A DNA stretch of 55,695 nucleotides from an uncultured Desulfobacterales bacterium (GTDB lineage: Bacteria > Desulfobacterota > Desulfobacteria > Desulfobacterales > ETH-SRB1). The notes under the pieces were generated by a model, which did no database searches, had not been told where the DNA came from, and saw only the letters and a list, made by a program, of their open reading frames with translations. The stretch lies in NCBI GenBank assembly GCA_965195235.1, contig CBDAFK010000159.1, positions 1 through 55,695 of the forward strand. The letters run 5' to 3'. The translations under genes and the position numbers were made by a program. Of this stretch, positions 1 to 54,435 are shown in pieces. How positions within the stretch are numbered: position 1 is the stretch's first letter; each line of letters begins with the position of its first letter.

Positions 1-978
1 ACAGATCATCGCCTGGGCAAAATGGAAAATAACTGCGATTGGCAAATCTCTGCCCGAAAAACCAGGACTGAAGGGAAGCAATATCGGGGAGCTTTCTTTG
101 TTCAGGACGAGATTGATGTTGGAAGACTTCTTGCTACGTTAAGTGCGAGGATGGACTGGTATAAGATATCTGATGGCTCTTTTTATGATTCAGCAGGCAC
201 AAGCGAGAAATACTCTGATAAATCAGGTGAGGAGTTTAATCCAAAACTGGGGCTGGTCTATCATCTGACCGATTCGACTGCTCTGCGGGGCTCTGTGGGA
301 CGGGCATCCAATATCCCTTATCTATATTCCCTGTATGGCACATGGGAGTGTCCCCCAGGGAAATTTAACGAAGGAAACCCTGATCTGGGCGTGGAATATA
401 CTATTGGCTATGAGGCAGGAATAGAGCAGCGTTTCGGAAATCAAGTAACATTACGCATGACCGGATTTTACAATGATATAAATGACTGGATGGCCAGGAT
501 TTACAATAAGACACAAGCAGGGGTTAAGTATTATAAGTGGCAAAATATAGATGAGGCGGAAACCAGCGGCATCGAATTAGAAGCAGAATACAGGCCCGTT
601 GCATCGCTCAAACTCTATGCCAATTATAATTACCTCCATACAGAGATAAGAGAGTACAAAGACAAACCGGAATACGAGGGAAACAGGCTTGACGGCCAGC
701 CTCGCTACCGCTTCAATTCCGGTTTTACCTATACCAATCCGGATATGTTCACAATTAACGTAAGACAACGTTACGTGGGCGATCGTTATGATGATATGGA
801 AAATGACCAGAAGCTCGACGCTTATACAACTTTTGATGTCAAAATTTCCAGAGATATTACTAAATTTATAGTGGCGTCCTTAGAGGTCGAAAATATCTTT
901 GACGAGGTCTGGCAGGAATCATATCAGTGGGAGACGCCAGGACGGATGATCTTTGGCAGGGTAAAGATAATGTTTTAA
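1..978 (+). CDS. TonB-dependent outer-membrane receptor, C-terminal barrel part (5' end outside window)
   Basis: Frame open from nt 1. Shares motifs with the complete receptor at 2186..4039 ([16 protein letters not shown], LRGSxGR, NPDL, NIDEAxTxGIE). Ends in an aromatic residue (..KIMF), typical of OM barrels. Confidence 0.8.
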   Translation, partial: TDHRLGKMENNCDWQISARKTRTEGKQYRGAFFVQDEIDVGRLLATLSARMDWYKISDGSFYDSAGTSEKYSDKSGEEFNPKLGLVYHLTDSTALRGSVGRASNIPYLYSLYGTWECPPGKFNEGNPDLGVEYTIGYEAGIEQRFGNQVTLRMTGFYNDINDWMARIYNKTQAGVKYYKWQNIDEAETSGIELEAEYRPVASLKLYANYNYLHTEIREYKDKPEYEGNRLDGQPRYRFNSGFTYTNPDMFTINVRQRYVGDRYDDMENDQKLDAYTTFDVKISRDITKFIVASLEVENIFDEVWQESYQWETPGRMIFGRVKIMF

Positions 979-993
979 ACAGGGAGCAATCAT

Positions 994-1944
994 ATGAAAA
1001 TCAAGAAGAAAAGTTTTTATTTGAAAACAGTGGCAGTTCTTGCGGCGATATTGGGTCTTATTACATTTTGTGTTACGCCACTTGCTGCGAGAAGTGAATA
1101 CAGGTGTGAGAAAGTCAATGCCATATTTATATCCGACAGGATTACAGATGTTGCCTATCGCCTCGGGGCAGTGCCGGTTGCGTATTGCGCGCGTTGCTGC
1201 TGGCCTATGACCCAAAAAGAGCTTTCTACTGTGACCAGGCTTGGATGTTACAGATGCGCCACAGTTGATTCGGTCATTAAAACAGCGGATAAACATAAAG
1301 TCAGGTTAATCCTGATTGAGAATGGCAGTGTCAGCATCAACAAAGACTGGAACTGGACGGATAAATTTTTAAAACCTTTAAAGGAACATGGCTACGATAT
1401 ACACGTCATAGACTTTTCAAAAGGGGTGCCCGGGGCTATCCTTGAAATAGGCAAGGCGCTTGGAAGGAAAGATAAGGCCATGGATCTTGCAAGGGAATAC
1501 ACAAGGTCGCTCAAGAGGATTAGAAACGCGATTCCCGCCACGAGAGCAGATAAAAAGATTCTGATTCTGCATGGTTGGGGAAAACGTGGTGTCCGTGTCG
1601 AAGCGCCGGGAGGCTATTCTGACCGGTTTCTGCTTGAACCGCTGGGGTGTATAAATGCGGGAAGCCTGATCAAAAAACAGGATACGAAAGTAAATAAAGG
1701 GTATTTTCCGCTTAAGAGCTGGCAGGCTGTTTTAAAGGCAAATCCTGATATTATTGTAACATATGGAAACTCCTATACTGTGCAAAAGAACCTTGTCCGG
1801 GCCTTAAAGACGCGCCCTGAATTAGCAAAGGTTACAGCCATAAGAAACCATGCGATTTATGCCCTTCCGTTCTATATGGACTCTTCGGTAACTCAGTATC
1901 CAAAAATTTTGAAGGTATGGGTAGATGCTGCCTATAAAGAATAA
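994..1944 (+). CDS. Periplasmic substrate-binding protein, Fe-siderophore/heme/cobalamin (FecB/BtuF-like) family
   Basis: N-terminal signal-like hydrophobic segment. C-terminal half resembles PF01497-type binders (..ANPDIIV.., ..VTAIRNHAIYALP..). Lies between two TonB-dependent receptor genes, with SD gggag upstream. Confidence 0.55.
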   Translation: MKIKKKSFYLKTVAVLAAILGLITFCVTPLAARSEYRCEKVNAIFISDRITDVAYRLGAVPVAYCARCCWPMTQKELSTVTRLGCYRCATVDSVIKTADKHKVRLILIENGSVSINKDWNWTDKFLKPLKEHGYDIHVIDFSKGVPGAILEIGKALGRKDKAMDLAREYTRSLKRIRNAIPATRADKKILILHGWGKRGVRVEAPGGYSDRFLLEPLGCINAGSLIKKQDTKVNKGYFPLKSWQAVLKANPDIIVTYGNSYTVQKNLVRALKTRPELAKVTAIRNHAIYALPFYMDSSVTQYPKILKVWVDAAYKE

Positions 1945-2088
1945 AAAAGATACAAAATACCCGAAACAAAGGAGGTGATAAATATTGATTACCCTGATTG
2001 AGTGGAGCTCAGTTTTTTTCAGGGGGTTGTAAGGGGAAAGGCGGCTCTCCCGGCAAAGAGTGAGACCGCCTTTCCGGTGGGAGGCAGG

Positions 2089-2110
2089 CCTGGTTAGATA
2101 TCTAACCAGG
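2089..2110. promoter_or_regulatory. Perfect 22-nt palindrome cctggttagatatctaaccagg in the leader of the receptor gene (operator or RNA hairpin candidate)
   Basis: Read directly. Preceded by a 10-bp-stem hairpin ggaaaggcgg..ccgcctttcc at 2035..2075. Confidence 0.3.
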
Positions 2111-2185
2111 CTACCCCTCAGTTCTTTTTTTATCAGAGCTGAGAGGGTCTTGTCAATTTTTATATGATAGGGAGGAGAACGGATC

Positions 2186-4039
2186 ATGAAACAGTTCAAA
2201 ACAATAATATGGTTGTTTACATTAGTTTTTGCCTTTGCCTTTGGGGCACAGGCGCAAGAGATAGTTGAACTCGAGAAAACGGTTGTCACAGCTACTAAAA
2301 CCGAGCATACCCTGGGTGATGTGCCCGTAGCCGCCGAGGTTATTACCAAAGAGGAGATTAAGGCCAAAAATATCAAAACTGTTCAGGATGCTCTTATACA
2401 TCTTACCGGAATAAAGATCACAAAATCTGGTGGAAGTTGGGGTGATAAAGGAAAGGTGCAAATTCAGGGTCTTGATGCAAGCCACACCCTGATACTAATA
2501 GATGGCCAAAGACTCTTAGGAGGACATGGCGCTGCTATAGATTTACAGCAAATCTCTATAGAGATGATTGAAAGAATCGAGATAGTAAAAGGACCTGCGG
2601 CTGCTCTTTATGGAAGTGATGCCATAGGCGGGGTGGTCAATATCATTACCAGGTCTGCTCCCAAGAAGCCTGCATTTTCTGCTTCCACTGCCTTTGGCAG
2701 CCGGAAAACCCAGGTTCATGAGGCAAGCGGCGGCTTTAAAAAAGATAAGTTTGGCGCTTTTCTCAATTTCACCTACAGGGAATCTGATGGCGTAGAGGCT
2801 GAATACATTAGTAGTGGAAAAAAACAAAGTGATCACTATGATGAGTATATTTTCCAGGGAAATTTCCAGTATGACTTTACTCCTCAATCGAAACTAAGCG
2901 TCAAGCCCTATTACTCTGAGCATACAACAAAAGAGGGAATTTCTGCCACGGAAATGCAGGACAGGACCCAGGAAAGAGTCGGCCTCAATTCTGTCTGGGA
3001 ATGGGAGCCTGACCAATTATCAAAATTAAGCCTGAGAGGCTCCTGGTTCAATTATGAACACTATCTGGATGATAAGACAACAGATTGGGAAAATGACAAC
3101 TATGAAGGAGAGATAAATTATAGCCGATTAATCTTAGATAGACATGCTCTAACCGGTGGCTATCACTACTATAAAGGAGAAGTAGATGATAAAGGAAAGC
3201 AATACTCGGCTGATCAGACTACTAATAGTTTCTTTATCCAGGATGAGATAGATTTTGAGCCCATTACCTTTGTCCTGGGCGCCAGGGTAGATGATCACGA
3301 CAGATGGGGCACAGAGGTCAATCCTAAAGCAAGTGTGCTTTACAGGGTAACTGAGGATTTTAAATTAAGAGGTTCGGCAGGTCGGTCTTTCAGGGCCCCC
3401 ACACTCGTTAAACTTTACGCAGATGGTTGGAGGATGGGCCCATGGCTTGTCCATGCTAATCCTGATCTAAAACCAGAAAAATCTGTCGGTTATCAATTGG
3501 GTGCAGAGTATACATTCTTCGAGAAACACCTTGGTAAAGTTTCCTTTTTCAGGAACGAGATCGAAGATTTGATAAGTTCTCGAACAGTAAGCGGGGGGAG
3601 GCCTCCCTGGGATATGTACTGGGAAAACATAGATGAAGCAACTACTCAGGGTATAGAGGCAAGTTTAATCAATCAGCTAACGGATAATCTAACCAGTAGA
3701 TTGGGATATACCTATCTCGATACAGAAAATGAGGAAACCCATAACGAACTCAAAAGGAAACCAAAACACAAGGTGGATGCAGAACTTAACTGGAGATTAC
3801 CTGAGTTTGGCCTCAATTTGAATTTTTCCGGTCAATATATCGGCAAAAGATACGATGATGAGGAAAATACCACCAGATTGGAAGCTTATACCATATTTGA
3901 TTTTGCTCTAACCAAGGATATTACCAAGTATGGTGAAATATTTTTCCGGGTGGATAATATTTTTGGCAAGGAAGACATCGAGGATGAATATGATATAGAT
4001 GGCGCCGAGTTTTTATGCGGAGTGAAAATAACTTTATAA
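2186..4039 (+). CDS. TonB-dependent receptor (617 aa, BtuB/CirA size class)
   Basis: Signal peptide, TonB-box-like VVTATK, and plug motifs ([43 protein letters not shown]). Long beta-barrel region. SD ggagga upstream. Confidence 0.9.
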
Positions 4040-4126
4040 TTGTGTCGGCGTTCCGTGCCCGCAAGCTCATATCTTTACGGGCACGGCATTTCTCATAATA
4101 GAGGTTTCCGTCACTCCCTTAACCTG

Positions 4127-5638
4127 ATGAAGGAAAAAACAATGGAAAGTAAAAGTAAAAAAACAAGGAATATAATAGGCATAGTCTTAGGCATTCTGAT
4201 AGTATTGGTTGTCTGGTCTATGGTAAGCGCAATGGGTAGCAGAGAAAAACCGGACGACGATAAACATCTCGGCATTGCGGAATATGAAAAGGGGAATTAC
4301 CAGGAGGCCATCAAATATTATAATAAGGGATTAGAAGCCAAGCCCGGTGATTCATGTTTGTTCAATAACCGTGGCCTGGCCTGTTATGAACTCAGAAACT
4401 ATGATGAGGCGCTTTCTGATTTTAGCAAGGCAATAGAACTAAAACCTGGCTTTACAGATGCCTATTTTAACCGAGGAAAAGCATACTGGAGAAAAGGAGA
4501 ACATAAAGATAAAGAGTCGCTGAAGAAAGCAATTTCTGATTTCAGTAAAGTCATAAAATTAAACCCTGATGATATGGAGGCTTATTACAACAGGGGGCTT
4601 GCTTACAGTAGTTTTGTCCATCACTGGAATAAAAAGGTCGATGATAGTTCTAAGCTTTCCGGATTTTCCCCTGATGAAACATATAATTTTGTTAAAGCCC
4701 TTGTTGATTTCCAAAAAGTAATCGACTCAGATTCTTCTTATAGCGCTCTCGCTATAGCCGGAAGAGCCAATCTCTTTTACAGGCACGCTAATTGGAAAGT
4801 GGCGATAATGGAATACAAGAAGGCGATAGAACGTAAGGAAGAAATTATAAAGGTCGTGGGCAAGGAAGGATATGGTGGGATGTTCGCACCTATGGGAAGA
4901 ACGTATCTATCGTTGGGAGAAATTGAGAACTCATATTCGAGTTATAAGAAATTCATGGATCTGGTTCCTGATCCTATGGCAACCTTCCATGAACAAGGGC
5001 CAACCTTTGGAATGGGCTATGCACTACATGTTGCTCAAAGTTTGAAGAAATACGAAAAAGCAATTGAATGGTATGACAGGAGAATTGCTATAAGTGAGAA
5101 GCCAAAAACGAGTGATTATTCGGGTAAAGGATTCTGCTATTACAAACTAAAGGAATATGACAAAGCAATCACGAATTACAATAAATGCCTGGATTTATAT
5201 GCTACCACAGAAACCCCTCAACATGAATATGGTTCTTCTGAAGGAGATGCCTGGAGATATCTGGGCATGATATACAAGGAAAAAGGAGACATTGGAAGAG
5301 CCGAAAAAGAATTTCGTAATGCTATACGAGTCTATAGTAAAAAGAAGAAAGGAGGAGGAAGGGTTAGATATGAAGGAAGAGGTCTGTGTTATCTTGAACT
5401 TGGGGAATATGATAAAGCAATTTCTGATTTTGAAAAAATAAAAGAATCAAAAATATATCCTCAAAAATATATAACCGCCCAAAAGAATATTGGTGTCACC
5501 TATCTAAAAATAGGGGATAAGGGAAAAGCAGAAGAATATTTTGAGAAAACAATAGAAATGGCCAAAGGGTATGAAAAAAAGAAGGATGAATATAAGGACA
5601 TAATCGAAGAAACAGAGAAGTTATTAAATGAAATATAA
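4127..5638 (+). CDS. Membrane-anchored TPR-repeat protein
   Basis: One N-terminal TM helix (IIGIVLGILIVLVVWSMV) followed by multiple TPR-like units (..YNxGxAyxxLxxYdEAixdFxKAIeLxP..). Start 4127 or 4142; the ORF-track start 4040 lacks an SD. Confidence 0.75.
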   Translation: MKEKTMESKSKKTRNIIGIVLGILIVLVVWSMVSAMGSREKPDDDKHLGIAEYEKGNYQEAIKYYNKGLEAKPGDSCLFNNRGLACYELRNYDEALSDFSKAIELKPGFTDAYFNRGKAYWRKGEHKDKESLKKAISDFSKVIKLNPDDMEAYYNRGLAYSSFVHHWNKKVDDSSKLSGFSPDETYNFVKALVDFQKVIDSDSSYSALAIAGRANLFYRHANWKVAIMEYKKAIERKEEIIKVVGKEGYGGMFAPMGRTYLSLGEIENSYSSYKKFMDLVPDPMATFHEQGPTFGMGYALHVAQSLKKYEKAIEWYDRRIAISEKPKTSDYSGKGFCYYKLKEYDKAITNYNKCLDLYATTETPQHEYGSSEGDAWRYLGMIYKEKGDIGRAEKEFRNAIRVYSKKKKGGGRVRYEGRGLCYLELGEYDKAISDFEKIKESKIYPQKYITAQKNIGVTYLKIGDKGKAEEYFEKTIEMAKGYEKKKDEYKDIIEETEKLLNEI

Positions 5639-5666
5639 GCTTGATTTTTAAAGGAGGTAAAAAATT

Positions 5667-5822
5667 ATGTGTTTACCGATCAGTGTTCTTACAAAAGGGC
5701 GAGTTAGTGGCTGCCTTGGGGTATGCAATCTGTGGCCTTATATCAGCGCTCTGGCAGTCCTTTGCGCTGGGATGGCATGGAACTTTGTTCGTGGAGGATT
5801 TTCCAGGAAGGAGCTTGGATAG
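5667..5822 (+). CDS. Unannotated small ORF, 51 aa, hydrophobic with 4 Cys (MCLPISVLTKGRVSGCLGVCNLWPYISALAVLCAGMAWNFVRGGFSRKELG)
   Basis: Translated by hand. Strong SD aaaggagg at 5650-5657, 9 nt before the ATG. Lies directly upstream of the radical SAM/SPASM gene. Too short for the ORF track. Confidence 0.4.
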   Translation: MCLPISVLTKGRVSGCLGVCNLWPYISALAVLCAGMAWNFVRGGFSRKELG

Positions 5823-5827
5823 AATAG

Positions 5828-5942
5828 CCACAGACACACGCAGACGACACAGACAATCCACTGGGCGACCCCGCCCAGTGGATGATGTCAGCCCTTCGGG
5901 GCCACAGGGGAAAAGTCTGTGTATGTCCGTGTGGGTCTGTGG
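5828..5942 (+). ncRNA. Y-shaped structured inverted-repeat element (cis-acting RNA candidate)
   Basis: About 25-bp imperfect outer stem (5828-5854 with 5915-5942), including two G-U pairs that work only in plus-strand RNA. Inner hairpins are ccactgggcg-accc-cgcccagtgg (5858-5881) and gccc-ttcg-gggc (5891-5902, UUCG tetraloop). Confidence 0.4.
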
Positions 5943-5956
5943 CTAATTAAACATAA

Positions 5957-6829
5957 ATGAATTTGTTATTTCCACAAACAACCTTGCAGATTGAACCTAC
6001 GCGCAGATGCAACCTGAATTGCAAGATATGTATACGCCCAAATTTGAATGAATTAACTGTCTCGCTTTCCTTAAAAGATTTTAGAAAGATATTTGATTCG
6101 TCTAATTTCAGGCACGTCGCCCTGCATGGATGGGGTGAGCCGCTATTGAATTCTGAATTATTTCAGATGGTAAAATACGCCGAGTCCAAAGGGGTTTCAA
6201 CTGAACTTACTACGAATGCTACGTTGCTTGAGACAAACATAGAAAGTATCCTTGCCAGCGGTTTAAGCAGCATTGTATTTGGGATACACGACAATGAGAA
6301 GCTGCCGGTTGTTGGGTCTCAGATTAGAGAGCTGGTAACTCGGCGTAGCCTAGAAAGATTGAGGAAACCTAAAGCCTACGTTGATATTGTCATATATGAA
6401 GGAAATCGGAATCGGATAGAGCATTTGGTGGAGACTGCGGCTGAATTGAGCATAGACGCAGTCGTTCTGCACAGGGTTTTTGATATCCGACAGGCGGGTC
6501 CTGACACACGGTATATTTCTGTTCAGGACGAAAAAATGCTCTTTAAAAGGGTAAAGAATCTGGCAAGAAGAGTAAAGCTAAAATTATATTTGCCTCCGGA
6601 ACCATCCATACCTTGCAGGGCGGTCAGGTATAGTCTTTTTGTTACATCTGAGGGCAAAATCACTCCATGCCCCTATTTGCCGGAGTTCTATATGGGAGAT
6701 GCAATTAACGGAGACCTGAAAAAGGTTATCTGTTCAGAAAGATATCAAAGTTTTGTCAGAAACATGAAAAAGCATCCTGTCTGCAGCAAATGCCCATTGG
6801 GCTCCACAGGCGGCAACTTCTATAACTAA
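5957..6829 (+). CDS. Radical SAM enzyme with C-terminal SPASM/twitch-like Cys cluster
   Basis: CxxxCxxC motif (RRCNLNCKIC). C-terminal ..ITPCPYLPEFYMGDAINGDLKKVICSERYQSFVRNMKKHPVCSKCPLG. Confidence 0.85.
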   Translation: MNLLFPQTTLQIEPTRRCNLNCKICIRPNLNELTVSLSLKDFRKIFDSSNFRHVALHGWGEPLLNSELFQMVKYAESKGVSTELTTNATLLETNIESILASGLSSIVFGIHDNEKLPVVGSQIRELVTRRSLERLRKPKAYVDIVIYEGNRNRIEHLVETAAELSIDAVVLHRVFDIRQAGPDTRYISVQDEKMLFKRVKNLARRVKLKLYLPPEPSIPCRAVRYSLFVTSEGKITPCPYLPEFYMGDAINGDLKKVICSERYQSFVRNMKKHPVCSKCPLGSTGGNFYN

Positions 6830-7088
6830 AGTTTCTCACCCTTAATTTCTAACAACATCAAGACAGCAAAGGAGCTGAATTTATTTCAGCCCTTGCTGTT
6901 TAAAGCTTTTGACCGGTTTGCTCCACGCAAGCCACGTCCTTTAGGGCGGGGTCAAGTGGAGCTATATAAAAATGTTTATCTTCCTTACCGGGAAGCCCCG
7001 CCTTTTAAGGCGAGGAGCTTCACAAATAAAATGGGTGCGAAACTTGAGTTCTATAATTTAACCTTTTCCAACAAAGCGTGTCTAATAA

Positions 7089-7619
7089 GTGAATGATCTA
7101 ATCTTAGTGGAAAAATTCAAAGGTGGAGATAGGACGGCTTTCAAGGAACTTGTCCTGAAATATCAAAAAGAAATTTATTTTTTGGCCTGCAGGATGGTGT
7201 TCAACAAAGAGGATGCAGCCGATGTTGTGCAGGAAATTTTTGTTCAGGTTTTTAAAAAGATCCATCAGTTTCGTTCTGCTTCCACGTTCAAGACCTGGCT
7301 TTACCGGGTTGCTATCAACCAGTGCAAGAATTTCTTGCGCGTGTTGAAGAAAAATCGAGAGCTTGCGCCGATTGAAAATTATGCTGTGACTGACCCGAAA
7401 GATTCCCAACTGGATCTGTTGCTGAAAAACGAAAGAGTCGATTTGATCAGTGAAACTATAGAAAAGCTGCCAAAAAAACAGAAGGCTGTTTTGATTCTGA
7501 GAACTTATCATGAGCTTTCTTATAAGGAAATCGCAGAAATCGTAGGCGGGTCGGTTAACTCTGCCAAGGTTAACTTTTCTCATGCGATAGAAAATATAAA
7601 AAGGCTTGTGGGTAAGTAG
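7089..7619 (+). CDS. ECF-type RNA polymerase sigma-70 family factor
   Basis: 176 aa. Region 2 (..AADVVQEIFVQVFKKIHQF..FKTWLYRVAINQCKNF) and region 4 HTH (LSYKEIAEIVGGSVNSAKVNFSHA). Confidence 0.9.
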   Translation: MNDLILVEKFKGGDRTAFKELVLKYQKEIYFLACRMVFNKEDAADVVQEIFVQVFKKIHQFRSASTFKTWLYRVAINQCKNFLRVLKKNRELAPIENYAVTDPKDSQLDLLLKNERVDLISETIEKLPKKQKAVLILRTYHELSYKEIAEIVGGSVNSAKVNFSHAIENIKRLVGK

Positions 7620-7648
7620 GAGCTGTTACATAGGAACCAGGGTTTGGT

Positions 7649-8278
7649 ATGAATTGCAAAACGATAAAAAAGCGGTTTTTGACGGACTACGTGGAAGGAA
7701 ATTTAGAGCTGGATCAAAAGACTCTCGTAGAGGATCATCTGGCGAATTGCCTCCAATGCCGGGAGCATTTTGGGGAAATCCAACGTATTGCGTCTCTTTT
7801 GAAATCCTATACTGTTGCGGATCCTGGAGAAGTTTTCTGGGATGGGCTTACGTCAAAAATTTATTCACGGGTAAACAAGAAAAAACCTGCGCAAAAAAAG
7901 CCCTGGGAAATTCTGCAAGAGTGGATGACCTGGAAAAGATTAGTGTACACTGCCACTCCCGTTTTGTTAATTCTTCTCCTTCTTTTTCCGGCCCATCATT
8001 TTTACCAATCCCATTTTTCAGAATTTACCAGTCAAGAAAATGTGCTGACCGTGGAGGAAATCGGAAATGAATTTTTGTTAATAGACGAATACTTAATTCA
8101 GATGCCGGCAAATCAGTTGGAAAAATTTGTGCAAAAAATGGCCTGGCTCATCTTAAGTCCTGAGGTCTTAGCCTGGCAGGAGTCCTTGGATGGGCTGGGA
8201 TTGGGGACAGATGAAGAAATCTTTCAGATGCGGAAAGAAAACATGGAGTTATTGGCAAAAAGACTGCACGAGGTTTAA
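7649..8278 (+). CDS. Anti-sigma factor (zf-HC2 type), single TM
   Basis: N-terminal H-x3-C-x2-C (HLANCLQCREHF), central TM helix, and position immediately after the ECF sigma gene. Confidence 0.7.
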   Translation: MNCKTIKKRFLTDYVEGNLELDQKTLVEDHLANCLQCREHFGEIQRIASLLKSYTVADPGEVFWDGLTSKIYSRVNKKKPAQKKPWEILQEWMTWKRLVYTATPVLLILLLLFPAHHFYQSHFSEFTSQENVLTVEEIGNEFLLIDEYLIQMPANQLEKFVQKMAWLILSPEVLAWQESLDGLGLGTDEEIFQMRKENMELLAKRLHEV

Positions 8279-8297
8279 TTTATAAAAGGAGGGATCT

Positions 8298-8789
8298 GTG
8301 AAAACTAAAATTTTTTGTATTGTTTTCGGCTTTGTTGTCATCCTGTCAATGACGCTGGAAACTGCCGTGGCCCAGAATCAAAAAATGGAGCGGGCGCTGG
8401 AACGTATAAATACAGTCAGGCTGCTTAAGATGATAGATGCCCTTGGGTTGGAAAAAGAAACAGCGGCAAAGCTTGCTTCCATATCGAACAAATATTGTGA
8501 GACCCGAAAAAGCCTTTTACGGAACACGAGAAAAGAGTTAAACGCATTGCGACAGATTTTAAGGAAGGATAGTCTGGATGAAGGTGAGTTAAAAAAAGTT
8601 GTAGGGCAGGTAAAAAGCCTTACAAAGGAATTAGCGGATTTAAAACTGCACCAGATGGATGAGGAGATGAATCTTCTAACGCATGAGCAACAGGCCAGGT
8701 ATTTAATTTTTAATGTAGATTTTCATAAAAAAATGCGCGGGTTGATTCAAGAAATCAGAGGGGCAGAAAAAAAGAAACCGAAAGAATAG
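8298..8789 (+). CDS. Periplasmic LTXXQ-motif (Spy/CpxP-like) protein
   Basis: Signal peptide, helical Lys/Glu-rich sequence, LTHEQQ motif, SD aaggagg. Confidence 0.6.
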   Translation: MKTKIFCIVFGFVVILSMTLETAVAQNQKMERALERINTVRLLKMIDALGLEKETAAKLASISNKYCETRKSLLRNTRKELNALRQILRKDSLDEGELKKVVGQVKSLTKELADLKLHQMDEEMNLLTHEQQARYLIFNVDFHKKMRGLIQEIRGAEKKKPKE

Positions 8790-8841: not shown

Positions 8842-9031
8842 GGTTAATGGTTCAAAGTTCCGGGGTTCACGGTTCAGGGTTAAACAGATGAGCTGATAGC
8901 TGTTAAACTGATAAACTATGAGTTATCTGAGCTCATTATGTCACCCAGGATACGCCTAACTGTGAACTGTGAACTGTAAACTGTGAACCTTGAACTGTGA
9001 ACCTTGAACTGTGAATTCTGAACCTGTGAAC
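8842..9031. repeat. Inverted heptamer arrays (ggttcaN units at 8842-8881; ctgtgaa/ccttgaa units at 8958-9031) around a small palindromic core
   Basis: Read directly. The core contains atgagct...agctcat. Confidence 0.9.
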
Positions 9032-10006: not shown

Positions 10007-10957
10007 GTGACTGTTACGAATTTAAGATGGATGGCGCTGATTATATCCTTTTTGGTCTTGATTCTGGGAGGATTAATAGGGCTTGATCTCGGCGGCTTCC
10101 TTCCTGTCTATGCCTGTCCTTATGTTGGGCAGACAAGGGGCGGGGTCTGTTTTTTGTTCAGACTCCAGTTCATCCTCGGAGTTGGATCCTGGGAAGCATT
10201 CAAGGCTCTGGGAGAGCACCTTCTCTATTTTTCTATTCTGGTCGTTCTTATCGGCAGGGCGTGGTGCGGATGGATCTGTCCTTTTGGATTTCTTCAGGAT
10301 GTCCTGGACTTGATCAGAAGAAAGCTCCATATAGGTTATATAAGGTTTCCCGAGCGGCTCCGGGCCAACTTAAGGTGCATGAAGTGGATATTTTTCTTTA
10401 TTGCTTTATTGATTCCCCTCTGGGTAGCCTATCCTTTATTAGCTCCATCTGTGGCCGGGGATCTGCGTCAACCTTTCTGCAGCCTGTGTCCAGGGAAATA
10501 TATCCTGCCGCTGGTTATTGGCAATCCCGATAGCGTGGCCGTTGATTTTAAAAGCGCCACTACTATTACCATGACCATTCTTGGTCTCACCTTTTCAACC
10601 ATTGCTATCATTGGCGCACTGCTGAAAAGACGATTCTGGTGCCCCTATTGTCCAATGGGCTTATTGCTTTCGTGGTACAAGAAAATCAGCTTTATAAAAC
10701 TCAAAAAAGATTGCCAGAAATGCACGATGTGCGAGGTCTGCTACAATGTTTGCCCGGTAGAGATACAACAGGTTTTTAAGGAAAGGGAAAACGAGGACGT
10801 TACTTTCACTGATTGTACTCTCTGCCTGCGATGTGTGGAATATTGTCCTGAAGACGGCGCACTCAGGGCAACCTTTCTTGGGAAAACAATCTATAAATCG
10901 ACCAGCAAGGGTTTCTTTTCCAGACAGCATATCATCCCGGGAGTTACTGATGATTAG
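10007..10957 (+). CDS. Membrane-bound 4Fe-4S polyferredoxin, NapH/MauN/CcoG-like
   Basis: Several TM helices, RAWCGWICPFG motif, and two ferredoxin motifs (CQKCTMCEVCYNVCP, CTLCLRCVEYCP). Confidence 0.8.
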   Translation: MTVTNLRWMALIISFLVLILGGLIGLDLGGFLPVYACPYVGQTRGGVCFLFRLQFILGVGSWEAFKALGEHLLYFSILVVLIGRAWCGWICPFGFLQDVLDLIRRKLHIGYIRFPERLRANLRCMKWIFFFIALLIPLWVAYPLLAPSVAGDLRQPFCSLCPGKYILPLVIGNPDSVAVDFKSATTITMTILGLTFSTIAIIGALLKRRFWCPYCPMGLLLSWYKKISFIKLKKDCQKCTMCEVCYNVCPVEIQQVFKERENEDVTFTDCTLCLRCVEYCPEDGALRATFLGKTIYKSTSKGFFSRQHIIPGVTDD

Positions 10958-11207
10958 GTGATTAGGTGATTAGGTGATTAGGTGATTAGGTGATTGGATG
11001 ATTGGATGATTGGATGATTGGATGATTGGATGATTGGATGATTGGATGATTGGATGATTGGATGATTGGATGATTAGATGATTAGATGATTAGATGATTA
11101 GATGATTAGATGATTAGATGATTAGATGATTAGATGATTAGATGATTAGATGATTAGATGATTAGATGATTAGATGATTGGATGATTGGATGATTCGTTG
11201 ATTGGAT
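10952..11207. repeat. 32-unit octamer tandem array in homogeneous blocks: 5x gattaggt, 10x gattggat, 13x gattagat, then gattggat x2, gattcgtt, gattggat
   Basis: Units counted from coordinates: 10952, 10992, 11072, 11176. The first unit supplies the TAG stop of the upstream gene. Confidence 0.97.
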
Positions 11208-11226
11208 GAGAGATAGAAGGTGAGTT

Positions 11227-13878: not shown

Positions 13879-14553
13879 ATGTTACCTCAATTTGCGATAC
13901 CCTATTCCACAGCCTTATTTATAGGCATTACATCCGGAATAAGCCAGTGTAATGTTGTATGTGCTCCGGTTGTATCTACTTATATAATGGGATCAGGACA
14001 AAGCGCACTAAAGGGCCTGAAATCTTTTGCTGTTTTTACGCTTGGAAGAGTTTTCATGTGCGCAGCGCTTGGCCTGGCTTCAGGTTATATCGGCGCAACA
14101 TTTATTAGTGTGGAAAGCGACTTGCAATATGTCCGGTTAGTTTACAGTTCTGTGTTGATTTTAGTTGGTTTGCTGATGCTTGTACATCCTGTGTGTAAAA
14201 ACTGCAAACAGTCAAAAGAGAAAACCAGGATGTTTGCCTTTTTCTCACAACGTTTTGCTTTCAATCCAACAGCACACTTGCTTATTATGGGGATGGCATT
14301 TGCCATGATTCCATGTCCGCCGATGGGACTCGCATTGCTTTATAGCTCACAGATGCCGTCAGTAATCTCCAGTTCTATCCTGATGTCGCTTTTCGGCATC
14401 GGGACAGCAGTCTCGCCACTTATAATTATTTGTGCTCTGGCAGGCTGGTTTTCTAAAAAAATTAAGAGCGAGGTTCCGCAATACAGGATGATGTTTCAGA
14501 GGCTTTCAGGGGTAATATTAATCTTACTTGGTGGTTTGCCTGTTATATTTTAA
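13879..14553 (+). CDS. Polytopic membrane protein, CcdA/DsbD_2-like (putative transmembrane reductant or ion carrier)
   Basis: About 6 predicted TM helices with Cys in TM segments (SQCNVVCAP, IPCPPMG). Starts 3 nt after the activator stop. Confidence 0.45.
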   Translation: MLPQFAIPYSTALFIGITSGISQCNVVCAPVVSTYIMGSGQSALKGLKSFAVFTLGRVFMCAALGLASGYIGATFISVESDLQYVRLVYSSVLILVGLLMLVHPVCKNCKQSKEKTRMFAFFSQRFAFNPTAHLLIMGMAFAMIPCPPMGLALLYSSQMPSVISSSILMSLFGIGTAVSPLIIICALAGWFSKKIKSEVPQYRMMFQRLSGVILILLGGLPVIF

Positions 14554-14638
14554 GGAAACTTTTAAATGGTCAATTGCTAATTTTGTCTCCCTCGCCCCTT
14601 GGGGAGTGGGCCGGAGTGAGGGGGAAACAGGAGGTGTA

Positions 14639-15430
14639 ATGATGAAGAATTTCAAAAGACTTTTTCAAATCGTTTTAGTTCTATGTTTTTGTTTGTGCCT
14701 TTCCACAGTTGCTTATGCCCATACAATGTGGCTCAATGTTACAGACTATTCCCCGAAGATTTTTTCCCATCCCAAATATGCTCCGGTGCCGCGGGCAAAA
14801 ACTGTGGTTTATTTTGGTTGGGGGCATAGATACCCGGTAGCTGATTTTTTATCTGACAAATATCTGGGAGACTTTTTCTTGATTAAGCCGGATGGCAGTA
14901 AAGAAAAATTAACACCTGGTGAAGGAGGATTCCGGGCTGTTGAAATAAAGGAAAAAAAGGAAGGCGGGATGATAGTCGCTGCGACCATAACACCTGGTTT
15001 TTATGGAGAAATAAAGAAAAAAAAGGATTTCTATAAACTTCGTTATGCGCAATACGCCAAGGCATTAATAAATGTTGGAAAAGTTTCAGGCAATCCCTTT
15101 TCAAAGCCTGTGGGCCACAGGTTAGAGATAATTCCTTTGAAGAATCCCAATGAACTTAAGTTGGAAGAGTGGTTTGAATTTAAGGTGTTGTTTGATGGAA
15201 AGCCGGCAAAGCGTGTGAAGATTCGTGCATGTTCTCTTTTTTCCTTCGCTGGCAAATCTTTTACTACATCAACAGATAATAATGGGAAGGCAAAGATAAG
15301 GATTCTGGATTATTGTGGACCATGGATTGTAAAAGCGACTATGCAGTTGCCCCCTACTAAGGAGTTCAAAGATAAATGCAAAGAGCTTTCTTATACAGCG
15401 ACGCTTACTTTTGCAGTGCCGAAAACGTAG
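14639..15430 (+). CDS. DUF4198-family periplasmic (Ni/Co-type) binding protein
   Basis: Signal peptide ending ..AYAHTMWLNV (mature N-terminus H-x-x-W, typical of DUF4198). LEIIPLKNP and VLFDGKPAKRVKI. SD aggagg at 14629-14634. Confidence 0.65.
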   Translation: MMKNFKRLFQIVLVLCFCLCLSTVAYAHTMWLNVTDYSPKIFSHPKYAPVPRAKTVVYFGWGHRYPVADFLSDKYLGDFFLIKPDGSKEKLTPGEGGFRAVEIKEKKEGGMIVAATITPGFYGEIKKKKDFYKLRYAQYAKALINVGKVSGNPFSKPVGHRLEIIPLKNPNELKLEEWFEFKVLFDGKPAKRVKIRACSLFSFAGKSFTTSTDNNGKAKIRILDYCGPWIVKATMQLPPTKEFKDKCKELSYTATLTFAVPKT

Positions 15431-21810: not shown

Positions 21811-22107
21811 ATGAACTTTTCTGGTTTCGTGGTTGGCAGTGTTATGCTGTTAACAATAGCATTTACTCATATACTTGTTATTAAAGGTGAATATCATTTT
21901 GGGACAAAGTGGTGGCCAGCGCTCTTTTTTGTTGGTTTTCTCTTTATATTAGTTTCTATCTTCGTCGATAATGAACTTTTGTCAGGAAGCCTTGGTATTG
22001 TCAGCTTTTGTTTATTCTGGAGCATTTATGAACTTTTTCTGCAAAAAAAGCGTGTTGCCAAAGAATGGTTTCCCAAAAATCCAAAAAGGGACTATGATAT
22101 TGGATGA
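21811..22107 (+). CDS. Small integral membrane protein (3 TM, about 98 aa)
   Basis: SD aggagg 7 nt upstream of ATG 21811. Hydrophobic segments. The stop TGA lies in a ggatgattgg repeat unit. Confidence 0.6.
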   Translation: MNFSGFVVGSVMLLTIAFTHILVIKGEYHFGTKWWPALFFVGFLFILVSIFVDNELLSGSLGIVSFCLFWSIYELFLQKKRVAKEWFPKNPKRDYDIG

Positions 22108-22270
22108 TTGGTTGATTGGGTTGATTGGGACGGAAAATCCCCTCTTGAGAGGGGTGGACGCGAAGCGGACGGGGTGTGTAATCCTCTATGAAGAAGGTTG
22201 GATGATTCGTTGATTAAATGAAAAGAAAAACCAATCAACCAATTAACCAATCAACGAATCGATGATTTCA
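22102..22270. repeat. Repeat-rich spacer
   Basis: Components are gattgg units, a GC hairpin cccctc-ttga-gagggg (22139-22154), and a 12-bp perfect stem gattcgttgatt/aatcaacgaatc (22204-22215 / 22249-22260) around a gaaaagaaaaa-containing loop. Read directly. Confidence 0.85.
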
Positions 22271-33362: not shown

Positions 33363-33797
33363 AAAAAAGCCGGGCCACCTTTTCCCAGGCAACCCGGCTA
33401 TCTTTTCCCAGGCAACCCGGCTATCTTTTTTCAAGACCCGTGGCTTTCCGTCCCCTGATCACTCAGGGTTTGGCTTTGTCTGCAGGGCTAATGGGGATCA
33501 TACGTCCCCACTGCACTTACCCCAATATTTAATTTTTAAGATGTGACCCTAATTGCTCTCAAAATAAAAAAGCCGGGCCACCTTTTCCCAGGCAACCCGG
33601 CTATCTTTTCCCAGGCAACCCGGCTATCTTTTTTCAAGACCCGTGGCTTTCCGCCCCCTGATCACTCAGGGTTTGGCTTTGTCTGCAGGGCTAATGGGGA
33701 CGTCATAAATTTATAAATCAAAGATTCATTGAGAGCAAAAAGTTATATTTGCAGACGTCCCCACTGCGGTTACCCCAATGTTTAATTTTTAAGATGT
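33363..33797 (-). repeat. Tandem duplication of a roughly 190-bp unit; each copy ends (minus strand) in a strong intrinsic terminator. Candidate tandem sRNA genes or 3'UTR elements
   Basis: Unit 1 is 33363-33547 and unit 2 is 33568-33797, the latter with a roughly 50-bp insertion at 33705-33753. Terminators lie at 33362-33399 and 33565-33602. ccctga-GUGA-ucaggg hairpin. Confidence 0.8.
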
Positions 33798-46027: not shown

Positions 46028-46154
46028 GCTTAATTAGGCTGTAGGCTATTAGGCTGAAGGCTGTTAGGCTAAACAACCTAACCTAAATGCCTTCAGCCTA
46101 TAGCCTAAACAACCTAACCCTAACAGCCTACTAACAGACTACAGCCTAAAAAGC
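46024..46154. repeat. Palindromic double array: aggctNNN units forward (46024-46070), then reverse-complement units (46089-46154)
   Basis: Read directly. Supplies the TAG stop of 4HB copy 2. Confidence 0.9.
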
Positions 46155-46163
46155 TAAAAGACT

Positions 46164-46829
46164 ATGCAAAAAAGAAACGGGTTCACACTGATTGAGATAC
46201 TTATCGCCATATTTATACTGGCGACGGTCCTGACAACGGTATATGCCGCATATACCGGAACTTTCAGGATTGTAAAGGATACAGCGTATGCTGATGACAT
46301 CTACAGCATGGCAAGGGGCGCCATGAAAAGAATGACTGAAGATCTGGAGTCGTCCTGCAAGCACATGGATTCTTTCAGCTTCACCTCCGTGAAGGCCGAG
46401 ACGGAAATGGGGGAGTTCACTGAGCTGTCATTTCTTTCGTTTGCGCATCTGGACTTTGATGATGAAAAAACCTCGGGCATTGCCGTTATAAACTACTTCA
46501 TTGTGGAGGATGATGAGAAAGAGAGCTGCGTGCTGAAACGAAGGGATGAGCTGTACATGGATAAAATAGAAGGCGCGGAGGAAGATGCCTCGAGAAAAGG
46601 GGGATATGCCCTCTGTAACAGGCTGCAATCCCTGGCATATAAGTTTTACGACAGCAAAGGGGAGGAGTACGATTCCTGGGATTCGAACTCTGACCTGGAA
46701 ACACAGAAAGACAGCGCCCCGTCTGTTGTATCCATACAGATGGATTTTATAAATCCCGATGACAGAGACAAGCCTTACAGGTTTATGACAAAGGTATTTC
46801 TGCCAATGGCGGGGAGTTTAGAAGATTAG
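46164..46829 (+). CDS. gspJ: T2SS minor pseudopilin GspJ-like
   Basis: QKRNGFTLIEILIAIFILATV prepilin N-terminus, 221 aa. Confidence 0.75.
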   Translation: MQKRNGFTLIEILIAIFILATVLTTVYAAYTGTFRIVKDTAYADDIYSMARGAMKRMTEDLESSCKHMDSFSFTSVKAETEMGEFTELSFLSFAHLDFDDEKTSGIAVINYFIVEDDEKESCVLKRRDELYMDKIEGAEEDASRKGGYALCNRLQSLAYKFYDSKGEEYDSWDSNSDLETQKDSAPSVVSIQMDFINPDDRDKPYRFMTKVFLPMAGSLED

Positions 46830-47009
46830 AGGATTAGAAGGTTAGAAGATTAGAAGGTTAGAAGATTAGAAGGTTAGAAAATTAGAAGGTTGGAAGATTG
46901 GAAGATTAGAAGGTTGGAAAATTAGAAGGTTGGAAGGTGGGAAGGTGGGAAGATTGGAAGGTTAGAAGGTTGGAAGGTTGGAAGATTAGAAGGTTGGAAG
47001 GTGAGGAAG
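46818..47009. repeat. 24-unit octamer array ttRgaaNN (gattagaa/ggttagaa/ggttggaa...)
   Basis: Units counted by hand. Encodes the last 3 aa plus the TAG stop of gspJ and fills the spacer to within 1 nt of the next ATG. Confidence 0.95.
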
Positions 47010-49977: not shown

Positions 49978-50278
49978 GGATTAGAGGATTAGAGGATTAG
50001 AAGGTGGGAAGAAATGAACATCGAACATCGAACGTCCAACATCGAATCTTGAATGGAAAAAATGAAGAAACAAAAATAGTCTTTGGATATTTGTATTGTT
50101 TTTTCAATTTTAAAATAATTTGAAGAGCGAAGCGACATCATTATTCGACGTTCGATGTTCAATGTTCGATGTTGGACGTTCATCTTTTTATATAAAACAT
50201 CGAATGTTGAATGGAAAGAAACAAAAGGCAAAAGACTGGAAAAAAAAGATGAACATCGAATATTGAATGAGAAAAAGG
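49978..50278. repeat. Composite repeat spacer
   Basis: Components are gattagag octamers, gaacatc heptamers (50014-50050), an inverted copy (50140-50182), and three catcgaatNttgaatgRaaa modules. Read directly. Confidence 0.85.
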
Positions 50279-50887: not shown

Positions 50888-51039
50888 AAGGTGAGAAGAT
50901 TAGAAGGTGAGAAGATTAGAAGATTGGCTCGTTGCTCGTTGCTCGTTGCTCGTTGCTGGTTGCTCGTTGCTGGTTGCTCGTTGAACTGTAAACTGTGAAC
51001 TGTGAACTGTGAACCCTGAACCTTTGAACCGTGAACCGT
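50877..51039. repeat. Three concatenated arrays: gattagaaggtgagaa octamers, gctcgtt heptamers x8, and gaactgt/gaacc heptamers
   Basis: Read directly. Encodes the last residues and the TAG stop of gspM. Confidence 0.95.
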
Positions 51040-51873: not shown

Positions 51874-51980
51874 GATAGGCTGTAGGCATTTAGGCTGTAG
51901 GCTGAAGGTTACAAAAACTAACAGCCTACAGTCTAAACAACATATAGCCTTCAGTCTAAAAGCCTACAGCCTAAACAACC
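51874..51980. repeat. Palindromic double array of aggctgNN units (forward 51874-51915, reverse 51920-51980)
   Basis: Read directly. Confidence 0.9.
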
Positions 51981-52910: not shown

Positions 52911-53084
52911 TTTGTTGCTGGTTGCTCGTCAAAACTCCGAACCTTTGAACCTGTGAACCTTTGAACCTTTGAACCTTTGAACCTTGAACCTTTGAACCTT
53001 TGAACCTTGAACCCTGAACACCTGAGTTTTGAATGTTGAATATTGAATTTTAAATTCAAAATTATATTTAACCCTTGAACCTTT
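52911..53084. repeat. Array of cctttgaa/ccttgaa units (8/7 nt), plus gttgctg and ttgaat units
   Basis: Read directly. Confidence 0.9.
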
Positions 53085-54033: not shown

Positions 54034-54435
54034 ATGAGCTATATTAATGATGCCCTGAAGAAGGTGCAGAAAGAAAAAGATAGTCTCTATCAGCGCTACG
54101 GCAACATTATATCCGACCCTGTCTATCACCGGACCGGACGCGGAAAAAGGTGGATGATTACAGGCAGCGTGATTGTTTTGATTCTGCTTGCACTGTCGGT
54201 CTTTATACTGTTAAGATACAATGCCTCTTCGGGTACAGACAACAGCAACATGGCCATTATACAGGATGCAGGGGATAAGACAGAAGTCAGAAGTCGGAGG
54301 TCAGAGGCCAGAGATCAGAGGTCGGAGATCAGAAGTCAGAAGTCAGAGGTCAGAGGTCAGAGGTCGGAGGTCGGAGATCAGAGGTCGGAGGTCAGGGGTC
54401 AGGGGTCAGAAGTCAGAGGTCAGATGAAAATTTAA
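54034..54435 (+). CDS. GspB-like N-terminal domain, TM, and heptamer-array-encoded C-terminus
   Basis: MSYINDALKKVQKEKD resembles the GspB N-terminus. TM at VIVLILLALSVFILL. The C-terminal about 50 aa (SEVRxxR heptads) are encoded by the 54281-54420 array. Confidence 0.45.
   Translation: MSYINDALKKVQKEKDSLYQRYGNIISDPVYHRTGRGKRWMITGSVIVLILLALSVFILLRYNASSGTDNSNMAIIQDAGDKTEVRSRRSEARDQRSEIRSQKSEVRGQRSEVGDQRSEVRGQGSEVRGQMKI
54281..54424. repeat. 20 tandem heptamers cagaggt/cagaagt/cggaggt inside the ORF
   Basis: Units counted by hand. All three forward frames are open across the array. Confidence 0.95.

Follow-up and report, generated by a model that had tools for sequence, protein, structure and literature searches.

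The window considered here is a stretch of 55,695 nt from an uncultured Desulfobacterales bacterium (GenBank assembly GCA_965195235.1, contig CBDAFK010000159.1, positions 1 to 55,695), and near one end it carries three features in close succession on the plus strand: a gene for a cysteine-containing micropeptide of 51 residues, a branched intercistronic hairpin and a gene for a radical S-adenosylmethionine (rSAM) enzyme (Table 1). An earlier note on this DNA had described the small open reading frame (ORF) with its strong Shine-Dalgarno (SD) sequence, the Y-shaped structure with two inner hairpins, one of them capped by UUCG, and a 290-residue enzyme with a CxxxCxxC motif and a C-terminal cysteine cluster, and all three are present. 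It had proposed that they might form a peptide-modification pair like those of the ribosomally synthesised and post-translationally modified peptides (RiPPs). The comparison of homologous loci indicates that the small ORF and one distinct rSAM clade are a conserved pair across Bacteria and Archaea, and in this the core idea of the note was right; that the peptide is the substrate of the enzyme, rather than its partner subunit, is what we infer.

The micropeptide of the window begins with M-C-L-P-I-S-V, continues with a GCxGxC motif and one transmembrane (TM) helix (approximately residues 22-40), and ends in a basic tail; its AlphaFold2 model consists of a helix over residues 23-50. The AAGGAGG core of its SD occurs at 15 sites across the window, and AAAGGAG(G) also stands 5' of the homologues in five related loci (L009, L013, L014, L016 and L018). 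The homologues form 15 clusters at 90% identity and 17 at 50% identity and measure 51-60 aa, with the exception of one member of the 50%-identity set: P0149, a 992-aa protein picked up with the profile of the peptide, belongs to the WD40-like repeat proteins and was discarded as spurious. The invariant columns are M1, C2, P4, I5, S6, V7, L8, T9, G11, G15, C16, G18, C20, L22 and W23, followed toward the C-terminus by W38, N39 and F40, and the first 40 codons give pairwise dN/dS values of 0.07-0.24. Positions 5-9 lay outside the search pattern, yet they are conserved. Among all distinct peptides collected, Cys2 is the sole universal cysteine: 35 of 73 have no second cysteine at all, and the GCxGxC motif of the window peptide is present in 29 of 73.

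In 72 members of the family the net charge is +3.5 on the C-terminal side of the hydrophobic segment and +0.3 on the N-terminal side, an asymmetry that fits the positive-inside rule, and a single-pass topology with the N-terminus outside and the C-terminus inside is therefore predicted. Neither the bacterial nor the archaeal micropeptides match any Pfam or NCBIfam family. This lack of a database family, together with the small size, is all that speaks for a chance reading frame whose adjacency to the enzyme is coincidental; purifying selection, a conserved SD, and a motif and an adjacency kept across two domains of life effectively refute that explanation, whose probability is close to nil. 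By its pattern of conservation, then, the ORF is a genuine gene, under selection, for a predicted single-pass membrane micropeptide.

The enzyme matches PF04055 (Radical_SAM) with 43.7 bits against a cut-off of 29.5 and PF13186 (SPASM) with 41 bits against a cut-off of 21.5, which places it in the radical SAM superfamily, and its cluster motif is C18xxxC22xxC25. Comparison with 56 homologues reveals that the only invariant cysteines of the C-terminal part are those of C220-x12-G233-x4-C238 and C276xxC279; the seven-cysteine SPASM motif (CX9-15GX4C ... CX2CX5CX3C ... C) does not appear in this comparison. The C-terminal domain thus looks twitch-like, consistent with one auxiliary cluster rather than a full SPASM domain. 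No NCBIfam cut-off is reached, so the enzyme is not placed in a family with a known non-peptide substrate, an outcome for which the earlier note had asked to check; the best match is TIGR04317, the tungsten cofactor oxidoreductase rSAM maturase, with 104.1 bits against the 380 required (E = 8e-30, residues 9-242), and unlike the context of that family there is no AOR-family gene adjacent here. The AlphaFold2 model (pLDDT 87.7) finds its closest solved folds in SuiB, BlsE, DesII, PqqE, SkfB and anSME, with TM-scores of ~0.7-0.76; SuiB, PqqE, SkfB and anSME modify peptides or proteins, and the C-terminal domain aligns weakly to that of anSME. The model accordingly puts the enzyme in the SPASM/twitch group, which holds peptide- and protein-modifying as well as small-molecule enzymes. 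A sequence search of the PDB returned weak, generic rSAM matches only. Pfam detects no RiPP recognition element (RRE) in the protein, and none could fit at its N-terminus because the cluster motif begins at residue 18. No SD is visible for the rSAM gene, either in the window or in the relatives examined.

The association of the two genes was assessed in loci gathered by a scan with one genome per species, which returned 80 loci; pairing was counted over 83 loci, by the peptide profile together with a plain listing of upstream ORFs. An ORF of 47-70 aa lies immediately 5' of the rSAM gene in 74 of the 83, and its product starts with M-C-[AVL]-P-[IV]-[STA]-V-x-[TA]. A micropeptide adjoins the enzyme in at least 78 of the 83 when four further loci are counted: L074 and L096, with variant forms of the peptide, and L062 and L069, from anaerobic methanotrophic archaea of the ANME-1 group, in which the peptides lie downstream; in L078 the contig ends at this point. 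The bacterial carriers of the pair include Desulfobacterota, Dehalococcoidia/Chloroflexota, Latescibacterota, Clostridia and Actinomycetes, among others, and the archaeal ones include Methanophagales (ANME-1), Methanosarcinales, ANME-2, Altiarchaeota, Bathyarchaeia, Thermoproteota, Archaeoglobi and Hadesarchaea, again among others. This spread is much broader than the earlier note would have led one to expect, and no description of the module was found in the literature searched.

Gene arrangement adds to this picture. The order TPR protein, small ORF, rSAM gene recurs on contigs with close and with distant homologues; peptide and rSAM genes overlap by ATGA in L014 and L016 and are separated by gaps of 11-16 nt in L009-L012. 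Two peptide genes accompany one rSAM gene in L073, L042, L050, L095 and L039, and in L062 (8045-12416) and L069 (8032-13721) a single rSAM gene precedes two or three units in tandem, each made up of a TPR gene and a peptide gene. Several peptide genes per enzyme is the pattern expected of an enzyme with several substrates, and the tandem duplication links TPR protein and peptide.

The hairpin that separates the two genes in the window begins 3 nt after the stop codon of the peptide gene, and 11 nt lie between its end and the rSAM start. Its outer stem comprises 28 bp (5825-5854 with 5915-5945) with three 1-nt bulges, and encloses a first hairpin of 12 bp (5856-5883) and a second (5886-5906) whose UUCG loop occupies 5895-5898. 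The fold of the 134-nt spacer has a predicted energy of -76.5 kcal/mol and a z-score of -9.09, and none of 200 shuffles is equally stable. The earlier note had held that its G-U pairs fit the plus-strand RNA only: two such pairs do exist, both in the outer stem, but the reverse complement folds as well (-75.6 kcal/mol, z -8.5), and for this reason strand specificity is not supported by energy. No terminator-like site was found at 5825-5956 on either strand; there is no U-tract, the stem being followed by AAUUAAACAUAAAUG, and the possibility of an intrinsic terminator was rejected for want of a U-run. The Rfam check that the note had suggested, carried out on the whole window, gave no match at gathering score in the hairpin region, and a search by E-value with the full-length element of L100 produced only a spurious miRNA match (E = 0.15).

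The note had also treated the Y-shaped RNA as part of the peptide/enzyme arrangement, and this is not borne out by the relatives. The gap between peptide and rSAM genes is shorter than 40 nt in 26 of 73 loci, and the hairpin is absent from gene pairs that overlap or leave gaps of 0-16 nt (L009-L012, L014 and L016). In L001 the same junction is occupied by an unrelated hairpin of CAGGATA-type inverted repeats, an element into which a 39-nt GC hairpin is inserted in some copies but not in others. Elements of the CACAGAC type do stand at this junction in L100-L106, where they are longer (~240-275 nt) and contain an inner domain of 115 nt; a further hairpin, of 35 nt, is present in the long forms of L100 and L102. 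The window hairpin looks like a derivative of the ~240-nt form that arose by deletion between two CCTTCGGG repeats. The possibility that the inner domain of 115 nt is coding was rejected, the 17-codon Cys mini-ORF within it losing its stop codon in L103 and being frameshifted in L104. Dispersal in the manner of a miniature inverted-repeat transposable element (MITE) or a repetitive extragenic palindromic (REP) sequence was likewise rejected, no copies being found off this junction in a limited sampling (981 kb of fetched loci plus the window, and a scan of JGI metagenomes for one exact 24-mer). As a separate observation, the Latescibacterota locus L023 has its own heptamer-array hairpin (3879-4036, CACGGAT/ACACTGA units) at the same junction. 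As far as these alignments go, the window hairpin is lineage-specific and not a core component of the peptide/rSAM system; it is neither terminator nor riboswitch.

The idea that stem-loops at this position matter has fared better than the specific element. Spacers of at least 40 nt between peptide and rSAM genes (47 distinct) have a median fold z of -2.8, with 45% below -3, against a median of -0.5 and a share of 12% among the controls, 152 co-directional spacers taken from these loci (Mann-Whitney p = 5e-8), the z-scores being somewhat optimistic in both sets as a result of mononucleotide shuffling. These structured spacers are unrelated in sequence between lineages, and those of L028 and L013 are simple GC hairpins. 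Between the window and L103-L106 the hairpin arms are identical at 78-80 of 80 nt, while the coding flanks are 72-74% identical and their third positions only 54-64%, and the boundaries of conservation fall sharply at the base of the stem; the CAGGATA-type element is likewise more conserved than flanking third codon positions. RNAalifold, applied to five near-identical sequences, identified 1 compensatory pair; in 9 pairs (12 cells) one side alone has changed and G-U pairing is preserved, and 5 cells are C-A. The junction elements show clearly how non-coding sequence can be conserved beyond the synonymous sites of the genes beside it. Selection on the sequence itself and repeated transfer would both produce this conservation, and the comparison does not distinguish between them.

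A competing explanation is that the hairpin has no function for the operon: it would be one of the palindromic insertions that build up in this genome, tolerated where it stands and either retained or swapped through recombination. The window is indeed rich in heptamer and octamer arrays and in other inverted-array hairpins; inner modules have been gained and lost between close relatives, L001 has a different element and most relatives have none, and both strands fold equally well. Moreover, the region is a recombination mosaic around the hairpin. The nearest relative by nucleotides is L001, with 98.3% identity over 2035-5813 and 95.6% over 5941-8775, and within 2035-8775 the window resembles L001 up to ~5700, L100 (~96%) from ~5700 to 6676, the hairpin included, and L001 again from 6677. 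What this explanation leaves unaccounted for is the near-identity of the arms with its sharp boundaries, the similar pattern of the CAGGATA-type element, the occurrence of copies at the peptide|rSAM junction only and the enrichment of structured spacers there across phyla, and it is considered a serious possibility, though less likely than not. From that enrichment and from the excess of conservation it can be argued that the hairpin is not mere junk.

Among known elements, the hairpin is closest to intercistronic stem-loops and REP-like stability elements: it is a very stable stem directly after a stop codon, without a U-tract, between genes that are probably translated strongly (the peptide) and weakly (the enzyme). 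Unlike REP-like elements it is not dispersed, consists of inverted heptamer arrays with nested hairpin modules, and is conserved in sequence beyond the flanking synonymous sites. The fallback that the earlier note had kept in reserve, a small membrane protein next to one of the genome's inverted heptamer-array hairpins, has turned out to be largely right as a description of the two features.

In order to find recurrent partners, the neighbours within 7 kb of all loci were clustered. The TPR protein, with an N-terminal anchor or a lipoprotein signal, recurs in 35 loci; an exported FmdE-domain protein of 425-455 aa, with a C-terminal anchor in archaea, in 44; and a polytopic membrane protein of 170-200 aa with the motif YLPIK...IPGPAAGM...PWYG lies directly 3' of the rSAM gene in 46. 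The polytopic protein has no match in Pfam, NCBIfam or the PDB; it and the FmdE-domain protein accompany the pair in lineages other than that of the window. TonB-dependent receptors recur in 12 loci, that of L100 bearing an STN signalling domain, and other neighbours are Fur, DtxR, FeoAB, DUF4198, a CbiO-type ATPase with likely CbiMNQ genes, a TrmO-like protein, a NifH-like protein and a ChuW-like rSAM with flavodoxin. The window opens with two TonB receptors and a periplasmic binding protein, after which come the TPR protein, the peptide, the enzyme, an extracytoplasmic function (ECF) sigma factor and its anti-sigma factor; further on lie an LTXXQ protein, a pair of DUF4198-like proteins, a Fer4_5 polyferredoxin and a DsbD_2 protein; neither the FmdE-like nor the polytopic protein was found in the window by tblastn. 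It is the neighbourhood by itself that leads us to infer a metal-acquisition setting for the locus.

The system has likenesses to several known ones. Like SuiB/SuiA, PqqE/PqqA, SkfB/SkfA and the synthases of sactipeptides and ranthipeptides, it combines a radical SAM core with a C-terminal cysteine-rich auxiliary-cluster domain; as with SPASM/twitch maturases, a small cysteine-containing ORF with a strong SD lies directly upstream, and such enzymes are among the best structural matches. It is well known that sacti- and ranthipeptide synthases make thioethers from cysteine, and that anSME, of the SPASM family, oxidises the cysteine of C-x-P-x-R. The differences are considerable: the conserved motif starts at residue 2, so the peptide has no leader; the enzyme has no RRE and only four invariant C-terminal cysteines; the partner is TM-anchored; no protease or exporter accompanies the pair; and the pair, shared by Bacteria and Archaea, sits in metal-homeostasis loci. 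With anSME (C/S-x-P/A-x-R) the candidate substrate shares a cysteine with proline at +2, but its motif, C-x-P-[IV]-[STA]-V, has no arginine, anSME has two auxiliary clusters, and no sulfatase is present and no NCBIfam cut-off reached, so that the enzyme is not identified as an anSME. The RiPP-like pair of the earlier note stands as far as the conserved small gene beside the enzyme is concerned and falls short as to leader and RRE; this is not a typical RiPP arrangement.

Methanobactin operons bring together a parallel set of peptide, TonB transporter and ECF sigma/anti-sigma factors, and the same combination of a small cysteine peptide, a TonB-dependent receptor and an ECF sigma factor with its anti-sigma factor is found in the window. 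One could therefore suppose a secreted RiPP metallophore: after modification, the cysteine-rich N-terminus would be cut off from the TM segment, leave the cell and be taken up again by way of the TonB receptor, and the C2, C16 and C20 of bacterial forms would suit such a role. This is improbable: archaeal and many bacterial forms have only Cys2 in an N-terminus otherwise rich in Ala, Val and Thr, there is no conserved protease or exporter, the TM helix and basic tail are conserved as much as the N-terminus, and archaea without TonB systems still keep the pair. In addition, unlike methanobactin operons, the maturase here is an rSAM enzyme rather than MbnBC and the peptide is membrane-anchored.

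A stronger competitor holds that the micropeptide is not a substrate but a small membrane subunit, in which a metal or an Fe-S cluster is bound by Cys2, perhaps together with the N-terminal amine, and which tethers or partners the enzyme and transport proteins; the substrate of the enzyme would then be a small molecule that the cell imports, for instance a metallophore or a tetrapyrrole. It agrees with the peptide being a TM protein, with the abundance of uptake genes (TonB receptors, Peripla_BP_2, FeoAB, DUF4198, the CbiO-type ATPase, the ChuW-like rSAM with flavodoxin), with the conserved polytopic membrane protein that follows the enzyme in so many loci, with ATGA overlaps that suggest near-equal synthesis of both products, and with the fact that the nearest named rSAM family is a cofactor maturase. 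There is also a precedent for metal binding by a cysteine at position 2, that of the 7-kDa Ni chaperone CooT, in which this residue is involved in Ni binding (PMC6006190). It does not sit well with two or three peptide genes per rSAM gene in several loci, with the strong SD of the peptide gene and the absence of one for the enzyme, or with the persistence of the pair without the polytopic and FmdE-like proteins, as in the window. All things considered, it is regarded as a serious explanation of clearly lesser probability than the one adopted here.

The explanation adopted, held with modest confidence as the somewhat better bet, is that the micropeptide is the substrate of the rSAM enzyme. The cytoplasmic enzyme would act on the peptide at or beside the universal Cys2, and the chemistry could be a thioether, another cross-link or cysteine oxidation, as in other SPASM/twitch enzymes. 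Modification would take place before or during insertion into the membrane with the N-terminus outside, where the peptide would work with exported TPR proteins (elsewhere FmdE-like ones) in a metal-acquisition locus under TonB/Fur/DtxR/ECF-sigma control. A strong SD for the peptide, none for the enzyme and a stable hairpin between them may result in far more peptide than enzyme. The hairpin would most likely work at the level of the transcript, whose peptide and rSAM parts it would uncouple through processing or through stabilisation of a 3' end, and it would also bring the peptide stop codon and the rSAM start codon close in space.

Several observations pull in the opposite direction. The positive-inside rule places Cys2 outside, away from the cytoplasmic enzyme, and modification would for that reason have to precede insertion. 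Leader peptide and RRE domain are lacking and, in the window, so are protease and exporter; the choice of substrate over partner subunit is a matter of interpretation. The small-molecule enzymes BlsE, DesII, MoaA and viperin are also among the closest folds, and the ATGA overlaps of some lineages suggest coupled translation, not a large excess of peptide. As regards the hairpin, apart from the equal stability of its reverse complement, the conservation of the arm sequence far exceeds what structure needs, which a simple stability-element model fails to explain, and in the spacer test the ORF calls were crude, the shuffles were of single nucleotides and the loci are phylogenetically related.

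A wider proposal can be put forward tentatively, as a possibility well short of even odds: the loci would represent an undescribed system of Bacteria and Archaea in which the N-terminal cysteine of a membrane-anchored micropeptide is modified by an rSAM enzyme, or receives a cofactor or metal from it, for the acquisition of metals (Fe/Ni/Co) by anaerobes of sulfidic sediments. Its core would be the MCxP micropeptide and the twitch-type enzyme, its further members would comprise an exported TPR and/or FmdE-like protein and the novel polytopic membrane protein, its users would include ANME archaea and their sulfate-reducing partners, and the junction heptamer-array hairpins would be sequence-constrained regulatory elements. 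If it is true that the enzyme modifies the N-terminal cysteine of a leaderless, membrane-anchored micropeptide, this would be a new class of substrate and a new mode of recognition for SPASM/twitch enzymes. The presence of the pair in sulfate reducers, Dehalococcoidia, ANME-1/2 and several deep archaeal lineages, and in Fur/DtxR/TonB/Feo/CbiMNQO neighbourhoods, may indicate an unrecognised metal route for anaerobes of sulfidic habitats. In any event, four unannotated families, the micropeptide, the rSAM clade, the membrane protein of 170-200 aa and the FmdE-like exoprotein of 425-455 aa, are given a common context that can be tested.

Table 1. Features of the window and, where a locus handle (L) is given, of related loci
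Feature	Coordinates	Strand	Remarks
Micropeptide gene	5667..5822	+	51 aa, 4 Cys, sequence MCLPISVLTKGRVSGCLGVCNLWPYISALAVLCAGMAWNFVRGGFSRKELG
SD of micropeptide gene, AAAGGAGG	5650..5657	+	spacing to ATG 9 nt
Branched intercistronic hairpin	5825..5945	+	outer stem of CACAGAC-like repeats (repeat I12), two inner hairpins
rSAM enzyme	5957..6829	+	290 aa, twitch/SPASM-like C-terminal domain, four invariant Cys
TPR protein, N-terminal membrane anchor	4142..5638	+	conserved upstream partner of micropeptide gene
TonB-dependent receptor at locus head	2186..4039	+	synteny in L001-L008, L009, L013, L018
Second, partial TonB receptor	22-978		
Periplasmic binding protein	994-1944		
ECF sigma factor	7089-7619	+	downstream of rSAM gene; syntenic in relatives
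zf-HC2 anti-sigma factor	7649-8278	+	downstream of rSAM gene; syntenic in relatives
Insertion, 223 nt	6826..7048	.	16-nt terminal inverted repeats CTMAAGTTTCKCACCC
8-bp duplication flanking insertion, TTCTATAA	6818-6825 and 7049-7056		
CAGGATA-type element at peptide|rSAM junction	L001 6166-6282; L004 2015-2170; L018 7912-8000; L020; L021		
Polytopic membrane protein, examples	L031 7854-8414; L073 7810-8379; L094 7782-8330		
FmdE-like exoprotein, examples	L031 4421-5785; L039 5195-6553		
Tandem arrays, examples	10949-11209; 46818-47002; 54281-54424; 8958-9031; 52939-53013; 50927-51036		

The 3' end of the rSAM gene is interrupted by an insertion that supplies its stop codon and deprives it of its 12 terminal codons; the tail so displaced, ...LTFSNKACLISE, can still be read at 7057-7096. 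In L100, which lacks the insertion, the enzyme has 302 aa and its gene overlaps the sigma gene. The insertion is 99.6-100% identical in L001-L008 and L022.

Further along the window, a DsbD_2 gene and a full DUF4198 gene lie at 13879-15430, downstream of an HGD-D dehydratase/activator pair, and they are putatively another metal-handling pair of the same island. Two tandem c-di-GMP-I-GGC riboswitch aptamers (RF03167) are found on the minus strand, at 33407-33483 and 33610-33686 (69.6 and 68.4 bits), each within a duplicated block that contains a 23-nt repeat, CTTTTCCCAGGCAACCCGGCTAT.

Tandem arrays of 7-8 nt units are very numerous between the genes of the window; the units are of many kinds, and an array may run to 32 copies. 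Intergenic heptamer direct repeats have been described as the TAACTGA repeats of Beggiatoaceae, Cyanobacteria and Bacteroidetes, in a report that makes no mention of Desulfobacter* or Deltaproteobacteria (PMC4679880). The arrays of the window are like these and like the cyanobacterial STRR in their abundance and unit length, and differ from them in the many different units, in often being inverted so as to form hairpins, and in their host, a member of the Desulfobacteraceae. Inverted-array hairpins with the architecture of the one at the peptide|rSAM junction lie at 50009-50268, 51876-51973, 46034-46149 and 22099-22259 (AACATCG, TAGGCTG and ATTGGTTG), the last with a GC-rich core.

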